Source of the DNA: a virus
Reading direction: 5' to 3' (one strand)
DNA: 41,329 nucleotides
UHGV virus genome: UHGV-0077431
Positions 4,131-32,892 of this stretch are shown in pieces. The notes under the pieces were generated by a model. That model was not told where the DNA came from and did not search any database. It saw only the letters and a list, made by a program, of their open reading frames with translations. Position 1 is the stretch's first letter. Each line of letters opens with the position of its first letter. Both the position numbers and the translations under genes were made by a program.

Positions 4131-4155
4131 AAGGCACCATCAGGTGCCTTTTTCT
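4131..4155 (+). terminator. Intrinsic terminator (AAGGCACC-atca-GGTGCCTT + T-run); weaker related hairpin at 4094-4113
   Basis: Perfect 8 bp stem with T tract on plus strand, abutting the int stop codon. Confidence 0.6.
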
Positions 4156-5335
4156 ATGCCATTTTTATTTCTGCATGCGGTACTTCAACCCATTCAACAT
4201 GATTCTGGGTATAAATTTTTGTCGATTTTGCATCACTATGGGCCATCCTTGCCTGCGGATCGATACCTTGTCTTTCGAAAATATGAGCCGCCAGCGCTCT
4301 AATCTCGTGGAAAGTTGGCCTTTCTTTGATAGGTAATTCTGCCGCTACACCTATCCGGTCCCGCAGCTCTGAAAATGCCCTGCTCAAATAGTCAGGGGCC
4401 ACCTGTGTTGGGTGGTTAACTTCCTTGCTTATCGGATTGCTTCTCTTTTCCAGAAGCCGGTGAACAACATAAGGACTGGCCACATTGTCTCTGCTGTTGT
4501 CGATGATCTCTTTCAGGGCCCTGCCGATCGGAATAGCGACGTGTGAAGCCTCTTTGTGCTGCACTTTTTGCCGGTGAATGTAAAGCGTTCCGAATATGCC
4601 AGCCTCCTCCTGATCGAACCATACACAGCCGCAAACCCCTTCTTGAGGTTCCTTGATCGAGTACCGGATCCGGGAAACTTCCAGGCGCGCTTGCGTAGTT
4701 TGTATGGCAAGGTCCATTGCAGTCTTCAGCCAAGGTTCAGCAGCTGCATGTATGGCCAAGAACTGTTCCAAAGTGAGTCGCCGGCGGACCTTTTTATCGA
4801 CACGCCGCATTTTTTTCCGTGTTGCAGGGTTATCCATCATTAGCGATTCATCAACAGCATAAGAGAATAGCTTTTTCAGGAAGCTAACTTTTCGGTTCTG
4901 AACATTGGCCGACGATTCAGAATGGTAATTTCGTATGTAGGCATTTACGTGCTCAAGCTCAATATCGCATGCGGGTATGTTATTAAAAAATTCTTTAACC
5001 CTGATGGCATCATTATTCCAATCGTCAAGTGTGCTTTTAGACGGCTGCTCATCTTTGATCGCTCTCTCCATAATGCGATCAACATGTTCAGAAAACGGGT
5101 GGGCTTCACCATTCAGCCCTCCCGATTCCCGAATTAATGAATCTATCGATGGTGTATTTTCAGGGCGCATCCTCAGGTTATATTCTCGGGCGATGGCGAT
5201 AGCCATTACTCGATCCGAACCGAGAGTTTTCTTTTTCCCAGTTATAAGCGTGAACTTATACACGCCACGATCTTTATCAAAAAAAAGATAATCAGGAAGG
5301 TGGCGGTATTCTTTTTTTCGTGGCCTTGCTGCCAT
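4154..5335 (-). CDS. int: Tyrosine integrase (lambda Int family)
   Basis: C-terminal catalytic region with H-x-x-R (FHEIRALAAH) and Y (KIYTQ); ATG at 5335 has GAGGG 6 nt upstream (track start at 5341 is TTG). Confidence 0.9.
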   Translation of the reverse strand: MAARPRKKEYRHLPDYLFFDKDRGVYKFTLITGKKKTLGSDRVMAIAIAREYNLRMRPENTPSIDSLIRESGGLNGEAHPFSEHVDRIMERAIKDEQPSKSTLDDWNNDAIRVKEFFNNIPACDIELEHVNAYIRNYHSESSANVQNRKVSFLKKLFSYAVDESLMMDNPATRKKMRRVDKKVRRRLTLEQFLAIHAAAEPWLKTAMDLAIQTTQARLEVSRIRYSIKEPQEGVCGCVWFDQEEAGIFGTLYIHRQKVQHKEASHVAIPIGRALKEIIDNSRDNVASPYVVHRLLEKRSNPISKEVNHPTQVAPDYLSRAFSELRDRIGVAAELPIKERPTFHEIRALAAHIFERQGIDPQARMAHSDAKSTKIYTQNHVEWVEVPHAEIKMA

Positions 5336-5337
5336 GG

Positions 5338-5547
5338 TCAACCCTCAATTATTAACTGACGTACCGCCTGATTAACAATTGAGTCAACTCCCCACTTTTC
5401 GGTTTCATAGACAAAAACTGAACCATCTACAATCCTTCCCATGAGTAATCCGTTTTCGACCCAACGTTTAATTGTACGGTTGTCAGGAATGGAGTCTTTG
5501 GTAAATTCGCGCTTACTCCAGAGACTCGCTTTCATTAGCTTTGCCAT
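5338..5547 (-). CDS. xis: Excisionase (lambda Xis-like)
   Basis: Motifs RTIKRWVENG and DGSVFVYETEKW resemble lambda Xis; ATG at 5547 has AAGGA 4 nt upstream; stop adjoins int start. Confidence 0.7.
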   Translation of the reverse strand: MAKLMKASLWSKREFTKDSIPDNRTIKRWVENGLLMGRIVDGSVFVYETEKWGVDSIVNQAVRQLIIEG

Positions 5548-11731: not shown

Positions 11732-12466
11732 TTAAAGTCGATTATATTTAATTGACTCATGAATCAATGCCTTACCCATGACATAAAGCTGATCCTGATT
11801 CGCCTCATTGATGTACCACTTTTCATATGCAGAGTTATCAGACAGAACAGCGAGCTTGTCACCTTGCATCTGTAGGCGCTTAACATGAAACGTCTTACCG
11901 TATACGAAAGAGTAAACACCGTCGGTCTGGAAGTGACGAACTGAGATGTCGACGAATAGTCGATCACCAGAAACGAGGGTTGGTGACATACTGTCGCCGT
12001 TAACAGTCATGACCTTCACATCTTCTGGATCGCGATTTCCAAAAAGCACTCGGGCATGTTCAGTCGTGAACTCAATGGCGTACAAGACTTCAACATAGTC
12101 AGAAAGCATGTAGGTGCCAGGTCCAGCACTGACAGATAAATCCAGAACTTCAACGCGATAAACATCCTGCTCTGGCTTATTAACCATGCGTTTCACTTCC
12201 CCTGTATCTGTTGGCTCACCAACACCGTATTCCAGCCATTCGGCACGTACACCAAGTACTTTACTGAGAGCCACTATTTTCTGACTGTCCGGTATGGCCT
12301 GGGCGTTGAACCACTTCCAAACTCCAGGTGTAGTGATCTCCACCCCGGCTTTATTAAGCAGGTCTGCAAGGTTTTTGTTTCGTCCCCGACCAGTTAATCC
12401 AGCAAGTTGACAAACTTGCAGCAGCCTAGTCGTGAAACCTTCTTTCGTTTCGTCTCTCTTAACCAT
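11732..12466 (-). CDS. cI: CI-type prophage repressor (HTH + LexA-like S24 peptidase domain)
   Basis: C-terminal VNGDSMSPT...HVKRL (Ser/Lys dyad context); divergent from cro across an operator-rich spacer. Confidence 0.9.
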   Translation of the reverse strand: MVKRDETKEGFTTRLLQVCQLAGLTGRGRNKNLADLLNKAGVEITTPGVWKWFNAQAIPDSQKIVALSKVLGVRAEWLEYGVGEPTDTGEVKRMVNKPEQDVYRVEVLDLSVSAGPGTYMLSDYVEVLYAIEFTTEHARVLFGNRDPEDVKVMTVNGDSMSPTLVSGDRLFVDISVRHFQTDGVYSFVYGKTFHVKRLQMQGDKLAVLSDNSAYEKWYINEANQDQLYVMGKALIHESIKYNRL

Positions 12467-12549
12467 TAGTTAAATATCCGGGAACTTGACTTTGCTGTCA
12501 GTTAATATTTATTATTAACTTGTGGTTAATTTTGTAATCAGGAGAGTCA
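12467..12549. promoter_or_regulatory. oR/pR/pRM-like divergent control region
   Basis: TTGACT (12485-12490) with TTATTA about 17 nt downstream; palindromic GTTAATAtttattATTAAC and GGTTAATTTTG. Confidence 0.6.
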
Positions 12550-12798
12550 ATGAACGCTGTAGAAATTGCAGTAGAAGCTGTCGGTGGACAAACAGCAGCC
12601 GCAAAAATTTGTGGTTTATCCCCGGTAGCTGTTCACCGCTGGGTTAAAAACGCCTGTCTTCCTCGTACCGAATACACAAAAAAAACGGAATACGCGGAGT
12701 TACTTGCTTCTAAATCAGCAGGTCAGTTCACTGCTGACTGGTTGCTGGAAAATGCTAATCCTGATCGTCCAGGAAAGGTTAACGATCCATCAGCTTAA
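12550..12798 (+). CDS. cro: Cro-like repressor (Cro/YdaS family HTH)
   Basis: HTH GGQTAAAKICGLSPVAVHRW; GGAGAG SD; position opposite cI. Confidence 0.75.
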   Translation: MNAVEIAVEAVGGQTAAAKICGLSPVAVHRWVKNACLPRTEYTKKTEYAELLASKSAGQFTADWLLENANPDRPGKVNDPSA

Positions 12799-12826: not shown

Positions 12827-13390
12827 GTGGATAAACAACACTGGAAAGTAGAGCGCCAACCTGCATGGCTGGTGGCTGCAATCAAAAGAACTATTGCCGA
12901 AATGCCAGGCGGTTATACAGAAGCTGCTGAATGGCTTGGCCTGTATCGCGCTGGAAAACTCTCAACGGATGCGCTCTACAACAGACTGCGTAACGAAGGA
13001 GATCAAATTTTCCCGCTTGAGTGGGCGATGGTGCTTCAGGATGCAAGTGGTACTAAGTATGTCACCGATGCGATAGCCCGCCGTAGTGGTGGCGTCTTCG
13101 TTCCGCTGGTGGAGGTTGATGATCTTGATAACGGCGATATCAACCAGCGCCTGATGGAGTCCATCGAATGGATTGGTAAACACTCGCAGTACCTGCGTAA
13201 GGCAACCGCTGACGGGGTTATTGATCCGGCAGAACGTGAGCAGATTGAAGAGAACAGCTATCAGGTGATGGCTAAGTGGCAGGAACATTTGACGCTGCTT
13301 TTCCGTGTGTTTTGTGCGCCGGAAAAAGGTGACGCCCGCGAGTGTGCAGCTCCGGGCGTCGTGGCAGACAAATCTTGTATGGAGAAGTAA
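12827..13390 (+). CDS. CII-like regulatory protein (YdaT-like)
   Basis: Position after cro; GTG start with GGGGA SD; family call from memory only. Confidence 0.55.
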   Translation: MDKQHWKVERQPAWLVAAIKRTIAEMPGGYTEAAEWLGLYRAGKLSTDALYNRLRNEGDQIFPLEWAMVLQDASGTKYVTDAIARRSGGVFVPLVEVDDLDNGDINQRLMESIEWIGKHSQYLRKATADGVIDPAEREQIEENSYQVMAKWQEHLTLLFRVFCAPEKGDARECAAPGVVADKSCMEK

Positions 13391-13562: not shown

Positions 13563-13736
13563 ATGCGCGAAGTTAACCGAAGGTTCAAAGACCACAGAGG
13601 GATCCCCGTTCGGGTTATCCGGTGGGAGCCTGAAACGCGGCGTGTTATCTACCTGCGAGCAGGGTATGAGCACGAATGCTTCAGCCCACTTGAGCATTTC
13701 AGGCAAAAGTTCAGGGAGATAGAGGATGAGAGCTAA
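13563..13736 (+). CDS. Small hypothetical protein (57 aa, MREVNRRFKDHRGIPVRVIRWEPETRRVIY...)
   Basis: ATG with AGGAAGG upstream; protein-like composition; not in ORF track. Confidence 0.45.
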   Translation: MREVNRRFKDHRGIPVRVIRWEPETRRVIYLRAGYEHECFSPLEHFRQKFREIEDES

Positions 13737-13764
13737 CCCAATGAAAAAAAACTTAACTGAGAAT

Positions 13765-14145
13765 TTATCCTGCCAGGGCATTAATCCTCAATTTGATAGC
13801 CTTTTCTTCAACTTTGAACCTCTTTTTCAGGTCTTCGAGTTCTTTGGCGAGAGCAATGTATTGATCCGCAACTCCATATTGAGCAATCAGTCCGGTTGCC
13901 AGTTTAGCATCGGCGTTTTCTGGATCATCAACATCGATGATTTTTCCATATTTTCCGGTAATAACGGCAATACGGTGCTTGCACATCGTGCCCATTTCAC
14001 CAGCAATGCAAGTGCATTCTATTTCGAGGTTACCGCTCTGATCGCTGATGGTTACATCGTAAAAACCATCACCGCTGCTGCTGTTAGCCAAAAGTTGGTA
14101 GATCACGTTGTATCTCCTTATTTTTTTGTAGCGGTTAACGCTCAT
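13765..14145 (-). CDS. SWIM-type zinc-finger protein (126 aa) with C-terminal coiled coil
   Basis: CxCx(n)CxH motif (ECTCIAGEMGTMCKHR); GAGGT 5 nt before ATG at 14145; opposite orientation to flanking genes. Confidence 0.6.
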   Translation of the reverse strand: MSVNRYKKIRRYNVIYQLLANSSSGDGFYDVTISDQSGNLEIECTCIAGEMGTMCKHRIAVITGKYGKIIDVDDPENADAKLATGLIAQYGVADQYIALAKELEDLKKRFKVEEKAIKLRINALAG

Positions 14146-14436
14146 CCCAACCTCATTATTGATCATGCTTTATTCCAGGTATACACTGTCTCGGCAGCGG
14201 CAAAATCCGTTGCCGGGATTGGCGTCCTGGAATTGATTAAAGAGCACAACCGCGCTCTGGCGGTTTTTTTGTGCGAAATGCATTGCTACACCCTGATTAT
14301 GGTGGGGCGTGCAGGGGCATCGAAAGATGCGCCGGCTTCTTTAGTCACCGGTTACGCCAACCCTGCACGTCTCACCACCAATGAGATTGGCGTCTCTTGT
14401 GGTGAGTTGTTAAAACTGACTAAAGAGGCAGCCATC

Positions 14437-14982
14437 ATGGCTACGATCCCAACCCTCGTTCAACCTGAAATTTCCGTAATTAACGGTCAGGCCGTTACCT
14501 CCTCTCTGGCTATTGCCGACTTCTTCACTAAGCGTCACGATGACGTACTGAAAAAAATCCGCGCTCTGGAGTGTTCGCTAGAATTCACTGCCCGCAATTT
14601 TGCGGTGAGTGAATACACCGACGCTACAGGCCGCAAACTTCCCTGCTATCAAATCACCCGCGATGGCTTCGCGTTCCTCGCTATGGGCTTCACTGGTAAG
14701 CGAGCAGCACAGTTCAAAGAGGCATACATCACAGCCTTCAACAGGATGGAAAATGCGCTTCACGGGGCAAGTGATAATTTCTGCGCAGCGCACAATGCCC
14801 ACGTTGTTTACCTCTACATGTCTGAAATTCACCGCGTCTGGTTAGAACAACTTTATCCGATGTTGGTTTCTGTTCAGTCTCCGCTAGCTTCATCACTCTA
14901 CGACTACATCAACGATGGTGTATTCGTTGCTGGGTTGGTGGACTCGGAACTGAACAAAAAGCACAAGGAGGTGCGAAAGTGA
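14437..14982 (+). CDS. Rha-family phage regulatory protein
   Basis: N-terminal motif NGQAVTSSLAIADFFTKRHDDVLKKI; AAAGAGG 8 nt before ATG. Confidence 0.7.
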   Translation: MATIPTLVQPEISVINGQAVTSSLAIADFFTKRHDDVLKKIRALECSLEFTARNFAVSEYTDATGRKLPCYQITRDGFAFLAMGFTGKRAAQFKEAYITAFNRMENALHGASDNFCAAHNAHVVYLYMSEIHRVWLEQLYPMLVSVQSPLASSLYDYINDGVFVAGLVDSELNKKHKEVRK

Positions 14983-15845
14983 GCACTAAATTAACCGGCT
15001 ACGTATGGGATGGTTGCGCGGCGTCGGGCATGAAGTTGTCTAGTGTCGCGATCATGGCTCGCCTCGCTGATTTCAGCAGCGATGAGGGCGTGTGCTGGCC
15101 GTCCATTGAAACTATTGCTCGCCAGCTTGGCGCAGGGCCTAGCACGATCAGAACGGCAATCGCAAAGCTTGAAAAAGATGGCTGGCTCACGCGTACACAG
15201 CGCCGTAATGGTAACCGTAATGCGTCGAACGTGTACCGCCTGAATGTAGCGAAACTTCAGGCTGCCGCATTTTCTCAACTGTCAGATTCTGACACGTCAA
15301 AATCTGACGCATCAAAATTTGACGCCTCAAAAACTGACCCGTCGAAATCCGTCAAAAACGGCGGTTTTGACCCGTCAGAATCTGGCGGGGATCCGTCAGT
15401 AAAATCAAAACAAGATCCACAAGTAACTTCAAAACCCTCTTGTCCGGTTGCTGCGCAACCAGACCCTGAGGTTGTGATTACTGATCAGGCCAGACAGGTC
15501 TTGTCTTACCTGAACCAGACAACTGGCTCACGCTACCAGGTATGCAGTACGTCGCTGGAGAATATTCGCGCCCGTCTTCGGGAACAATTCACGGTTGATG
15601 ACCTGTGCCTGGTAGTGGATTACAAAAATGCCGATTGGCGTGATAGCGAGCAGGCGCAATACCTCCGCCCGGCAACTCTGTTCATTCCAAAAAACTTCCC
15701 TGGTTACCTGCAAAGCGCGACCAAATGGTCCAGTGCTGGCCGGCCTGAACGCGTTAACGGCAAATGGGAGACTAACTCAGCCAGCCGCGCAAACTTCCAG
15801 AGTGTTGATTACTCACTGCCAGAAAATTCGGGGTTCCGTTCATGA
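14979..15845 (+). CDS. Replication initiation protein (O-like; N-terminal winged helix, acidic Ser-rich linker, conserved phage C-terminal domain)
   Basis: GTG start with AAGGAGGTG at spacing 5, overlapping Rha stop; iterons inside the coding sequence. Confidence 0.75.
   Translation: MSTKLTGYVWDGCAASGMKLSSVAIMARLADFSSDEGVCWPSIETIARQLGAGPSTIRTAIAKLEKDGWLTRTQRRNGNRNASNVYRLNVAKLQAAAFSQLSDSDTSKSDASKFDASKTDPSKSVKNGGFDPSESGGDPSVKSKQDPQVTSKPSCPVAAQPDPEVVITDQARQVLSYLNQTTGSRYQVCSTSLENIRARLREQFTVDDLCLVVDYKNADWRDSEQAQYLRPATLFIPKNFPGYLQSATKWSSAGRPERVNGKWETNSASRANFQSVDYSLPENSGFRS
15290..15381. repeat. Iteron array (about six 13-mers TGACnCnTCAAAA at 15 bp periodicity) with adjacent A/T-rich tract: candidate origin
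   Basis: Direct repeats tgacacgtcaaaa, tgacgcatcaaaa, tgacgcctcaaaa, tgacccgtcgaaa, tgacccgtcagaa; A-rich 15395-15440. Confidence 0.6.
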
Positions 15846-16069
15846 TGACCAATAAATATTGCCAGGCGCTGGCGGCACTGCGTAGCAAACCAGCTCACGA
15901 ATTGAAAGAAGTTGGCGATCAGTGGCGGACACCGGATCTGCTTTTTTGGGGGATCAACGCGCTATTTGGTCCATTAGTTCTGAACTTGTTCGCAATATGC
16001 GGGGAGAGGCCGCGTGAAACTGGTCCTGCCTTTTCCTCCGAGCGTGAACACTTACTGGCGCGCCCCTAA
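15842..16069 (+). CDS. Short ORF (75 aa), possibly a truncated remnant (N-terminal WRTPDLLF motif reminiscent of phage Dam-family methyltransferases)
   Basis: ATGA overlap with replication gene stop; 3' end overlaps rusA by 56 nt. Confidence 0.3.
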   Translation: MMTNKYCQALAALRSKPAHELKEVGDQWRTPDLLFWGINALFGPLVLNLFAICGERPRETGPAFSSEREHLLARP

Positions 16070-16400
16070 CAAGGGGCCGCTGGCCGGTCGTCACCTCATT
16101 AGCGCTGATGGTCGTAAATACCAGAGCGCTGCCTGCGTGGCGATCATTGAGCAATTACGACGTCTCCCGAAGCCATCGACTGAACTGGCAGCGGTAGAAA
16201 TCACTCTGTACCCGCCGGATGCGCGCCATCGGGATATCGATAATTACAACAAAGCCCTGTTTGACGCGCTGACGCATGCGGGTGTCTGGGAAGACGACAG
16301 CCAGATTAAGCGCATGCTGGTGGAATGGGGGCCAGTGGTGCCGAAAGGAAAGGTTGAAATAACGATCAGCATTTACGAACCGGCGGGTGCAGCCGCCTGA
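16014..16400 (+). CDS. rusA: Holliday-junction resolvase RusA
   Basis: RusA pattern (LPFPPSVNTYW, RHRDIDNYNKALFDALTHAGVWEDDSQI); GTG start with GGAGAGG SD. Confidence 0.8.
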   Translation: MKLVLPFPPSVNTYWRAPNKGPLAGRHLISADGRKYQSAACVAIIEQLRRLPKPSTELAAVEITLYPPDARHRDIDNYNKALFDALTHAGVWEDDSQIKRMLVEWGPVVPKGKVEITISIYEPAGAAA

Positions 16401-16414
16401 TATGGAGAAATAGC

Positions 16415-17107
16415 ATGAATCAGTTAACCGCAAAGGGTGTTGTGACAATGTCCAGCCGTGAAATTGCCAGGCTGGTGCAGAGCAAACATGGTGATGTGAA
16501 GCGCTCAGCTGAGCGCCTTGAATCTGCTGGTATTTTAACCGCGCCGTTGGCGCACACCCCCTACGAACACCCGCAAAATGGGCAAACATACGAGGAGTAT
16601 TGGTTCAACAAACGTGATTCTCTGGTGATCGTTGCCAGGATGTCGCCAGAATTTACCGCCGCCGTTGTCGATCGCTGGCAGGAGCTGGAGAACAGTCAGG
16701 CCGTCAGTGTGCCACAAACATTGCCGGAGGCATTACGCCTCGCGGCTGATCTGGCCGAGCAGAAAGAACAACTCAGCCAGCAGTTAGCCGCTGCTGCACC
16801 GAAAGTTGAATTTGTCGATCGGTACTGTACTGCCAAAGGCTCAATGTCATTCCGCCAGGTAGCAAAGCTATTGCAGGCTAAAGAAACAGATTTCCGCTTG
16901 TTCCTCATTGAGAGCGACATCTTGTACCGGCTAGGCGGAGTGCTGACACCGCGGCACCAGCATATTGCGGCCGGGCGGTTTGAAGTGAAAACCGGCACTA
17001 CGAGTGAAACAAACTACGCATTCAGCCAGGCGCGTTTTACGCCCAAAGGCATCGAGTGGATCGGCGGCCTGTGGACGGCACACATCGCTAAGGGGCATGC
17101 CGCGTGA
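16415..17107 (+). CDS. Phage antirepressor (AntA/Rha-like N-terminus, KilA-C/ANT-like C-terminus)
   Basis: N-terminal VVTMSSREIARLVQSKHGDVKR; C-terminal FRQVAKLLQAKETDFRLFLIESDILY. Confidence 0.65.
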   Translation: MNQLTAKGVVTMSSREIARLVQSKHGDVKRSAERLESAGILTAPLAHTPYEHPQNGQTYEEYWFNKRDSLVIVARMSPEFTAAVVDRWQELENSQAVSVPQTLPEALRLAADLAEQKEQLSQQLAAAAPKVEFVDRYCTAKGSMSFRQVAKLLQAKETDFRLFLIESDILYRLGGVLTPRHQHIAAGRFEVKTGTTSETNYAFSQARFTPKGIEWIGGLWTAHIAKGHAA

Positions 17108-19419: not shown

Positions 19420-20472
19420 ATGAAAAATACTGTAAATATAAACAGTGTTGAGCTTATCAACGCTGACTGCCTGCAATACCTCGCTACCCTCCCAGATAAC
19501 ACCATCGACCTTATTGTTACGGATCCGCCTTATTTTAAGGTGAAGCCGAACGGCTGGGATAATCAGTGGAACGGTGACGCCGACTATCTTCGATGGCTTG
19601 ATATGTGTCTTGCCCAGTTCTGGCGAGTGCTTAAGCCTGCCGGCAGCCTGTATTTGTTTTCAGGTCACCGACTTGCATCCGATATTGAGATCATGATGCG
19701 TGAACGCTTCAACGTTATGAACCACATTATCTGGGCGAAGCCATCAGGGCGTTGGAACGGTTGTAATAAAGAAAGCCTGCGCTCTTACTTCCCCGCGACG
19801 GAACGCATCCTTTTCGCTGAGCATTATCAGGGGCCATATAATCCGAAAAGCGACGGATTTGCTGAGAAAAGCAACGAGGTCAAACAGCACGTCATGGCTC
19901 CGTTAATCACCTACTTTCGTGATGCACGAGCCGAACTGGGGGTCACGTCCAGGCAAATAGCTGACGCCACCGGAAAGAAAAATATGGCGTCTCACTGGTT
20001 CGGTACCAGTCAGTGGCAACTACCAAACGAGCAGGATTACGAAAAGCTGCAGGAATTGTTCACTCAGATCGCCATTGAGAAGCACCGCGCCTCTGAACTC
20101 AAAGCACCGCATCACCAGCTGGTGGCCACATGGCATTCGTTGAACCGGAAATACCTTGATCTGCTGGAAGAGTACAAATCTCTTCGGCGGCATTTCTCTG
20201 TGACAGTAGCCGTGCCCTATACAGACGTCTGGACACATAAACCCGTCCAGTTCTATCCAGGCAAACACCCGTGCGAAAAGCCCGCTGATATGTTGCGGCA
20301 AATCATCAACGCCAGCAGCAGGCCCGGCGATGTGGTAGCTGATTTCTTTATGGGCTCGGGATCAACTGTTAAAGCAGCCATTGAACTGGGCCGCCAGGCT
20401 ATCGGCGTAGAACTGGAAGAGGAACGTTTCAACCAGACGGTAAGTGAGGTAAGGCAGCTGGCAGGGGAATAA
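19420..20472 (+). CDS. DNA methyltransferase, beta-class amino-MTase (N6-adenine or N4-cytosine), orphan
   Basis: N-terminal DPPY motif (IVTDPPYF), C-terminal FxGxG AdoMet motif (FFMGSGST); no endonuclease gene adjacent. Confidence 0.85.
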   Translation: MKNTVNINSVELINADCLQYLATLPDNTIDLIVTDPPYFKVKPNGWDNQWNGDADYLRWLDMCLAQFWRVLKPAGSLYLFSGHRLASDIEIMMRERFNVMNHIIWAKPSGRWNGCNKESLRSYFPATERILFAEHYQGPYNPKSDGFAEKSNEVKQHVMAPLITYFRDARAELGVTSRQIADATGKKNMASHWFGTSQWQLPNEQDYEKLQELFTQIAIEKHRASELKAPHHQLVATWHSLNRKYLDLLEEYKSLRRHFSVTVAVPYTDVWTHKPVQFYPGKHPCEKPADMLRQIINASSRPGDVVADFFMGSGSTVKAAIELGRQAIGVELEEERFNQTVSEVRQLAGE

Positions 20473-32154: not shown

Positions 32155-32892
32155 ATGGCCACACCAAACCCGCTGGCACCAACAAAAGGTGCTGGTACCA
32201 CCCTCTGGGTTTACACCGGAACTGGTGATCCATACGCCAATCCGCTTTCAGACGTTGACTGGCTGCGCCTGGCAAAGATTAAAGACCTGCAGCCCGGAGA
32301 ACTGACAGCTGAATCGGAAGATGACACCTACATCGATGATGAGAATGCCGACTGGACATCAACGATGCAGGGGCAGAAATCAGCCGGTGAAACAAACCTG
32401 ACGCTCGCATGGATGCCGGAGGATTCCGGTCAGCAGGACCTGGTGAACTGGTTCGATGAAGGCACCGTGAAGGGGTATAAAATCAAATATCCGAATGGTG
32501 TTGTCGATGTCTTTAAGGGCTGGGTGAGCAGTCTCGGCAAGACCATCTCGTCTAAAGAGGTCATGACCCGCACGGCAAAAATCACCAACAATGGCAAACC
32601 ATCGCTGGCCGAAGACAGTGGTACCGCGCCGATTGCCGTTACGGGGATCAGCCTGGATAAATCCACGGCGGCTGTGGCTGTCGCGGCCACGACGCAACTG
32701 GTTGTTTCTGTCCTGCCAGCAAGTGCTTCAGATAAGTCTTTCCGCGTAGCCAGTTCTGATCCGTCAAAAGCAACGGTCACCGTCAGCGGCAATACCCTGA
32801 CTGTTACCGGCGTGGCGGCAGGCACCGTCGAGATCATCGTAATGAGCAATGACGGTAACTTTGTGGCGATCTGCAAAGTCACTGTTTCCTGA
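32155..32892 (+). CDS. V: Major tail protein V (with C-terminal Ig-like domain)
   Basis: Lambda gpV-like ([23 protein letters not shown]). Confidence 0.9.

Follow-up and report, generated by a model that had tools for sequence, protein, structure and literature searches.

The locus considered here raises the question of what, besides protein, is specified by a set of short direct repeats in the middle of the putative replication-initiator gene (14979–15845, plus strand) of a lambdoid prophage, UHGV virus genome UHGV-0077431, the whole 41,329-nt stretch of which is referred to below as the window. We suggest, with reasonable confidence, that positions 15279–15460 are the prophage's origin of vegetative replication, an iteron-type origin with a lambda-like layout to which the initiator itself binds through its N-terminal domain. 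Origin-type iterons and an A/T-rich tract inside an initiator gene, as in lambda, had been proposed in the initial annotation of this DNA, and the proposal is now supported by three independent comparative lines, namely DNA-level selection over 15279–15460, modular inheritance of the element and the gene context in relatives. The repeats and the tract described there are indeed present, but the cis-element as a whole appears to be larger and more complex than had been described.

Within 14500–16500, Tandem Repeats Finder reports one array only, at 15288–15349, with a period of 15, 4.1 copies and the consensus TCTGACGCGTCAAAA. The array consists of four head-to-tail 15-bp iterons (15289–15348; TCTGAC-NCN-TCAAAA), in frame as the pentapeptides SDxSK, and is followed by a degenerate fifth unit, TCCGTCAAAAACGGC (15349–15363 when read in the 15-nt register; the weakest member of repeat family D1), and by a palindromic iteron-like site, here called element B (TTTTGACCCGTCAGAATCTGG, 15364–15386; inverted repeat I2), which matches on both strands and is 90% complementary to 15283–15302. 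The 13-mer TGACNCNTCAAAA occurs exactly at 15290, 15305 and 15320, that is, three times in the window, where 0.01 occurrences are expected and where at least three were found in none of 100 shuffles. With one mismatch it recurs at 15335, in register, and at 15368 on the plus strand (15365 on the minus strand), the latter 33 bp further on and hence 3 bp off register. What had been annotated as about six 13-mers spaced 15 bp apart is more exactly four copies in strict register, one that is degenerate and one palindromic copy that is off register. The core TGA-N4-TCARA is present 10 times in the window against 3.07 expected, and 8 of the 10 fall within 15288–15379. All of these direct repeats, the four in-register units and the two further copies (15289–15386), sit between the regions encoding the HTH_36 (aa 23–70) and Phg_2220_C (aa 174–245) domains. 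Two readings of the array are possible, as TCTGAC-NC-GTCAAA palindromes or as GTCAGA-A-TCTGAC palindromes across the unit junctions, and 15281–15293 is a perfect 13-bp instance of the latter. Beyond the candidate origin there is a sole iteron-like palindrome, at 32755–32768 (TGATCCGTCAAA / TGACGGATCAGA), within the open reading frame (ORF) 32155–32892 in the late (structural-gene) half; it is probably there by chance, about three sites of this kind being expected at random in the window. A promoter-like match at 15289–15318 is iteron sequence resembling TTGACA and was given no weight, the promoter-site count being at chance level.

The A/T-rich tract said to follow the repeats is real but modest. 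The G+C content is 36% at 15400–15449 compared with about 52–58% elsewhere in the gene, and the 40-mer 15396–15435 is the least stable of the gene (nearest-neighbour ΔG −46.7; window mean −56.0, SD 3.8), 2.4 SD under the window mean and in the top 1.2% of the window for instability; the operator region near 12500 and an A/T-rich insert at 13730–14190 are less stable still. This 40-mer coincides with two 24-bp GATC-headed A/T-rich repeats (15390–15411 and 15414–15435; direct repeat D4), which we presume to be the unwinding region, and these are followed by the conserved tail of the cis-element (15436–15464), recognized by its third-position conservation and extending up to a mosaic joint. For comparison about 90 homologous loci were assembled, nine phages or prophages from annotated collections and 80 loci taken from one genome per species across Enterobacterales, ranging from Citrobacter to Proteus, Providencia and Morganella. 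Across this family and its genera the GATC sequences at 15390 and 15414 are invariant (GAT 78/78 and 69/69), and at least two GATCC are present in 80 of 89 loci. Neither a DnaA box (TTWTNCACA) nor an integration host factor (IHF) site was found within one mismatch in 15200–15500, and the ATCCACA of the second 24-bp repeat occurs in only 17 of 89 loci.

One indication that this stretch is more than a coding sequence comes from its codons. Their choice in 327 repeat units, drawn from 78 different linkers, was set against that in the remainder of those genes. Serine at unit position 1 is encoded by TCT in 90% of the repeats but in 9% elsewhere, and serine at unit position 4 by TCA in 90% as against 17%, whereas AGY, which accounts for 48% of serines in the rest of the genes, is never used (0%) in the repeats; lysine is AAA in 236 of 236 cases (63% elsewhere) and aspartate is GAC in 82% (43% elsewhere). 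The third base of unit codons 1 and 5 is more informative than either of the other two, and although residue 1 of the unit alternates between S, F, P and T, the T preceding GAC is fixed. Shared ancestry does not explain these frozen codons, because Ser, Lys, Asp and Glu columns that are invariant as amino acids in the N-terminal domain of these sequences use mixed codons, with a mean top-codon share of 0.50–0.59 and with all six codons employed at certain invariant serines. Downstream, the core at 15363–15425 is more rigid still: most of its conserved residues show 97–100% single-codon use (GAT 78/78, GTA 77/77, TCA 66/66, 71/71 and 59/59, TTT 75/75), and core third positions are invariant despite an alternating amino acid, as where S and P alternate and the third base is A in 100%. 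The synonymous sites of element B are likewise near-invariant (TTT 75/75, GAC 42/42, GAA 70/70, TCT 74/76).

A codon alignment of 59 Phg_2220_C-type genes delimits the element. Both folded domains have a third-position conservation of about 0.55 (about 0.58 in the N-terminal one), and values of 0.72–0.92 are reached only in 15279 to about 15458; over 15429–15458 the value is 0.84, after which it drops to 0.64 and then to about 0.55. Amino-acid identity, however, is 0.77 in 15279–15458 against 0.87 in the N-terminal domain. We infer from these alignments that the constraint in 15279 to about 15460 acts on DNA and not on the peptide, because the third positions there are near-frozen although the amino acids vary more. 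In a divergent clade (about 60% N-terminal domain identity) the peptide reads IEGSN instead of SDxSK, and yet the 15-bp units, TTGAGGGGTCAAATA, retain the same TGA-N4-TCAAA core and period.

These observations bear directly on the idea that the repeats serve the protein, the Ser/Asp/Lys pentapeptides forming a flexible or phosphorylatable tether, with the DNA period a by-product of slippage and the likeness to iterons a coincidence. Such an idea would account for repeats that are in frame, form SDxSK units and change in number in 5-aa steps, and the linker is indeed predicted to be disordered. It sits poorly, however, with codons that are 90–100% fixed in the repeats while these amino acids take a mixture of codons in other parts of those genes, with third positions conserved better than the amino acids, and with a peptide that switches to IEGSN while the DNA core and period stay unchanged. 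Considering that codon fixation and third-position conservation already largely refute it, we regard this explanation as very improbable. The linker peptide is probably a disordered tether whose sequence the DNA element largely dictates: residues 103–162 are modelled as disordered, with a predicted local distance difference test (pLDDT) score of 31–38, and residues 96–162 are rich in Ser, Asp, Lys and Pro. The repeats do lie in the linker-coding part of the gene, as first annotated, but the linker is not notably acidic (D+E 10, K+R 8, net charge about −2). The 'conserved' linker motif FDPSESGGDPSV would then be largely the translation of a DNA element, a clean case of overlapping code in which a peptide motif is fixed by selection on DNA and not on protein, and annotators and engineers should note that recoding or deleting the linker would probably kill the origin.

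Selection at the RNA level would conserve synonymous sites just as well, and TCA and TCT are minority serine codons in these genes, so that a constraint on the mRNA deserves consideration, be it a fold or a stretch of rare codons in the linker region by which translation is paced or message stability controlled. Against it, the central 4 nt of the units vary without complementarity (positions 6–9 being C in 71%, G in 56%, C in 80% and G in 44%) and no hairpin is maintained, no Rfam family matches over the repeats, and the strict 15-bp phasing, the palindromic sites on both strands and the GATC pairs are features of a DNA-type element. We therefore attach very little weight to an mRNA-level explanation and return to the repeats as protein-binding DNA, for which an origin is the function we favour.

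The second line of evidence concerns the way in which the element is inherited. Repeats of 15-bp period follow the N-terminal domain in all of the approximately 90 loci collected, with 3 to about 10 units, and the number varies by whole units, the proteins of close relatives having 283, 288 or 293 aa. The same N-terminal domain and repeats are joined to at least four unrelated C-terminal types (assigned by motif, a method that replaced single-linkage BLAST clustering after the latter had merged two types), and SfII/SfIV-type phages cease to match the DNA at query position 486 (window position 15464), just past the conserved element. On these alignments the N-terminal domain and the repeats are inherited as one mobile module with a mosaic joint at about 15464. 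The C-terminal domain of the SfIV type matches that of lambda O (E 1e-25), and in four loci (L084, L086, L088 and L089) the form with this lambda-O-type domain immediately precedes a Phage_lambda_P gene (E down to 1e-54). With C-terminal types 3 and 4 an IstB/DnaC-like loader gene comes next in 8 of 9 loci; a helicase also follows in phiP27, and a toprim protein in EKP1. Because the C-terminal type tracks the neighbouring replication gene (P or DnaC-like), the module takes the exact place of the lambda O N-terminal domain plus ori-lambda.

Of 5426 complete E. coli genomes, 1848, or about a third, carry the module. It occurs in Nissle 1917, in phiP27 (an Stx2e phage) and in SfII and SfIV, which convert the serotype of Shigella; working phages, plaque-forming or inducible, have it as well (LLS, SfII, SfIV, phiNP and YeP1). 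In databases its protein goes only by the names 'conserved phage C-terminal domain protein' or 'GntR regulator'. A limited literature collection, searched by sequence string or by phage name and including work on SfI, SfIV, Stx 'Eru' and phage L, yielded no account of these repeats. What the present comparison adds is a probable origin with base-pair bounds (about 15279–15460) for a replication module that prophages of Enterobacterales very commonly carry.

Several members of the collection show what can happen to the module. The Proteus faecis locus (L078, 2838–3050) has 3.1 copies of the 15-bp unit, 2.6 copies of a 33-bp element-B repeat (98% matches) and 2.4 copies of the 24-bp GATC repeat (100% matches), and a Providencia locus (L070, 2819–2955) has 9 units derived from a duplicated 60-bp block; to judge from these sequences, the candidate origin elements expand independently in separate lineages. 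E. coli ECDA1023 (L077, 2501–2737) has lost the repeats, and residues 1–79 of the N-terminal domain (86% identity) continue in frame into 455 aa of unrelated sequence, a fusion that we take to resemble the pseudogene of the e14 cryptic prophage of E. coli K-12 (ymfN / oweE-aaaE). The module also occurs in records given non-enterobacterial hosts, namely Elizabethkingia phage EKP1 (L009), Vagococcus sp. (L021), Chryseobacterium sp. (L025), Martelella alba (L052) and Pseudomonas lundensis (L080). The N-terminal domains of L021, L025 and L052 are near-identical to the enterobacterial type (92, 89 and 80% identity), and those of L009 and L080 are more divergent (65 and 63%); the high identities suggest contamination or mis-assigned hosts for those records rather than a true host range. 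A small ORF lies directly downstream of the initiator gene in about 22 loci, where it groups by BLAST with the exemplar SfIV_42, and is of PerC type by Pfam in 10 of 82; in SfIV itself this ORF comes after the lambda-O-type C-terminal domain, and there is no P gene.

Conserved protein-binding DNA need not be an origin, and an array serving repression or autoregulation as an operator, or bound by a host or phage factor in partition or recombination, is an alternative to be weighed. Synonymous constraint is silent on which DNA function is under selection; the N-terminal domain gives GntR/MarR/PaaX-type helix–turn–helix (HTH) matches and some records call the protein a 'GntR family regulator'; and in one locus a gene with a ParB HTH lies downstream. 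On the other hand, the module replaces the N-terminal domain and ori of lambda O before a lambda-O C-terminal domain and P gene, and it also stands before DnaC-like loaders. The array is in mid-gene, is always accompanied by a block of A/T-rich repeats and in no case lies upstream of a promoter, a placement that an origin fits better, and the motif is not enriched elsewhere in the window, the lone other site being that at 32755. We consider a non-origin array unlikely, although less so than either the protein-level or the mRNA-level explanation, and retain the origin as the probable function.

The initiator itself, a product of 288 aa, is translated from a GTG start that agrees with annotated homologues and is preceded, 6 nt upstream, by an AAGGAGG ribosome-binding site; the assignment draws on the ORF list, Pfam, TIGR02220 and PHROGs. 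Its N-terminal winged-helix domain (aa 1–95; 14979–15263, plus strand) contains the HTH_36 match (nt 15045–15188; Pfam E 8e-12, 45.2 bits with a cut-off of 25), with side matches to GntR/MarR/PaaX-type HTH families and, among solved structures, weak matches to MarR; 47 of its residues are invariant across 9 phages. The Phg_2220_C domain (15498–15713, plus strand) scores 89.7 bits in Pfam (E 1.3e-25, cut-off 27) and the protein scores 74.3 bits against TIGR02220 (cut-off 66.65), so that both domains exceed the curated thresholds. PHROGs places the protein in the category 'replication initiation O-like / primosomal protein'. An AlphaFold model of aa 155–274, the Phg_2220_C part, has six helices with a mean pLDDT of 81.7, and a structure search with this domain gave no convincing relative. 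The N-terminal domain is presumed to bind the iterons and the helical Phg_2220_C domain to recruit the replisome or the helicase.

On this basis a course of initiation can be proposed. The N-terminal winged-helix domain of the gene product would bind the 15-bp iterons, with their alternating TCTGA(C) and TCA(A/G)A half-sites, and the palindromic element B; the resulting nucleoprotein complex may destabilize the adjoining GATC-bearing A/T-rich 24-bp repeats; and the C-terminal domain may then recruit the replicative helicase. In relatives this last step could proceed through the lambda-P-type or DnaC-type loaders encoded next door, and in the loader-less phage of the window presumably through host factors. 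A Pfam scan of the window detected no helicase or loader gene, P included, and phages of this type appear to load a helicase although no loader is among their genes.

That an origin should lie within the initiator gene is familiar from textbook accounts of lambda and in that sense unsurprising; it is the DNA-binding domain and the repeats that differ from lambda. As in ori-lambda within O, the middle of the gene, which encodes the linker, holds both iterons and an A/T-rich tract, and the repeats of the window span relative positions 0.36–0.53, compared with 0.39–0.48 for the annotated lambda O iterons. Lambda O is similarly a two-domain protein, DNA-binding at its N-terminus and recruiting at its C-terminus, in which the N-terminal domain and ori form one mosaic unit, and relatives of the window protein have a true lambda-O C-terminal domain followed by a lambda-P gene. 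In contrast, BLASTP of the window protein against lambda O gave a best E of 0.62 and no Phage_rep_O match was obtained at E ≤0.01, which places the window protein, as far as these searches can tell, outside the lambda O protein family. The initial label 'O-like' is thus apt for the layout and the role of the gene, but neither domain is homologous to lambda O. The window iterons are 15 bp long, abutting and in codon register, with 3–10 copies in the family, whereas lambda has four 18-bp iterons spaced 20–24 bp; the window has the conserved element B and the two GATC-headed 24-bp repeats in addition, and its phage lacks a P gene. A likeness of window CGTCAGAATCTGGCG to the right-hand palindrome of lambda ori, CGTCAGAGAATTCTGGCG, was rejected, its alignment score of 18 being reached by 193 of 500 shuffles.

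The gene 18 proteins of P22 and L offer a precedent: with lambda O they are described as distant relatives that bind origins, the iterons of each differing and lying within the reading frame that encodes it, and the short repeats of phage L are six in number and imprecise (PMC8022706). The repeats are of 11 bp, TGTCCAACGGA, in L and of about 20 bp in P22. The window initiator shares with them a private set of iterons within its own coding region, but P22 and L encode a DnaB-type helicase (gp12) and the window phage neither helicase nor loader. The DnaD-like replication organizers of Firmicutes and their phages, in which a winged-helix N-terminal domain is combined with a helical C-terminal domain, are a further system for comparison.

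With regard to the GATC sites, P1 oriR and E. coli oriC contain A/T-rich repeats with GATC, the methylation state of which controls opening or sequestration. The candidate origin resembles both in that two invariant GATC sites head its A/T-rich repeats and that a Dam-family gene is often next to the initiator: in 25 of 82 loci the gene immediately after the initiator encodes such a methyltransferase, and in 7 more it encodes a methyltransferase of another kind. It differs from them in lacking a DnaA box over the interval searched and in that the Dam-like gene of the window is truncated. Methylation control of the two GATC sites is put forward here solely as a hypothesis by analogy.

Several points weigh against regarding 15279–15460 as an origin. 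Binding by the initiator and origin activity are both deduced from comparison; synonymous constraint proves a function at the nucleic acid level and not that this function is replication; and the A/T-rich tract is just moderately unstable. Neighbouring half-sites are 7–8 bp apart, centre to centre, which is odd for a symmetric winged-helix dimer. The window phage, as most Phg_2220_C forms, encodes neither helicase nor loader. Covariation between the N-terminal domain and the iterons is weak, because the core motif is nearly identical in all clades; a comparison of the recognition helix with the iterons was dropped for this reason, the TGA-N4-TCA core being common to all clades and the flanks alone differing.

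A bolder reading, which we hold only tentatively and think doubtful when all of its parts are taken jointly, is that the locus represents a distinct and very widespread class of origin, in which the phage supplies nothing for replication but one initiator gene, Phg_2220_C recruits the host helicase machinery directly without a loader from the phage, methylation at the two invariant GATC sites gates firing, and the linker motif is a translated DNA element. If firing were indeed gated in this way, it would explain why a phage Dam-family gene is so often directly downstream.

The initiator gene belongs to the early-right operon of a lambdoid prophage of Citrobacter/E. coli type, and its nearest proteins, at 98–99% identity, are from the Citrobacter freundii complex. 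A CI-like repressor gene (11732–12466, minus strand) is followed by Cro-like (12550–12798) and CII-like (12827–13390) genes, a DUF4222 gene, an inserted RNA/antirepressor module, the initiator gene and a methyltransferase remnant, and further along the operon by RusA, Rha/KilAC antirepressor, DUF968 and Q. The remnant (15842–16069, plus strand) encodes the 75 N-terminal amino acids of a Dam-family methyltransferase, matches only the first 36 positions of the Pfam Dam profile and runs into rusA (16014–16400). In the relatives L001 and L004 the gene after the initiator is intact and encodes a 439-aa protein (PAPS-reductase-like plus Dam), and a deletion of about 1.1 kb is implied, because the 439-aa gene has been cut to a 75-aa remnant entering rusA. 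A second DNA methylase (N6_N4_Mtase) is encoded at 19420–20472.

Upstream of the initiator gene, Rfam identifies an isrK Hfq-binding RNA at 14194–14270 (74.6 bits) and a C4 antisense RNA at 14295–14382 (81.2 bits), directly followed by an Ash/Rha-type ORF at about 14350–14979. By sequence likeness, 14194–14979 would be a P1/P7 immI-like (c4-ant) or Gifsy isrK-type module inserted between the DUF4222 and initiator genes; the closest E. coli relatives lack it and have DUF4222 directly adjoining the initiator gene. A 418-aa ORF at 13726–14982 is probably an artefact spanning the insert. A 133-aa SWIM zinc-finger ORF (13765–14166, minus strand), which belongs to a PHROG of unknown function, lies in the A/T-rich DNA that separates the DUF4222 gene from the isrK/C4 RNAs. 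Finally, at the left end of the window a gene for an AIDA/pertactin-type autotransporter (28–2442) is followed by a lambda-type integrase gene (4154–5341, minus strand), and this region is probably the left boundary of the prophage.

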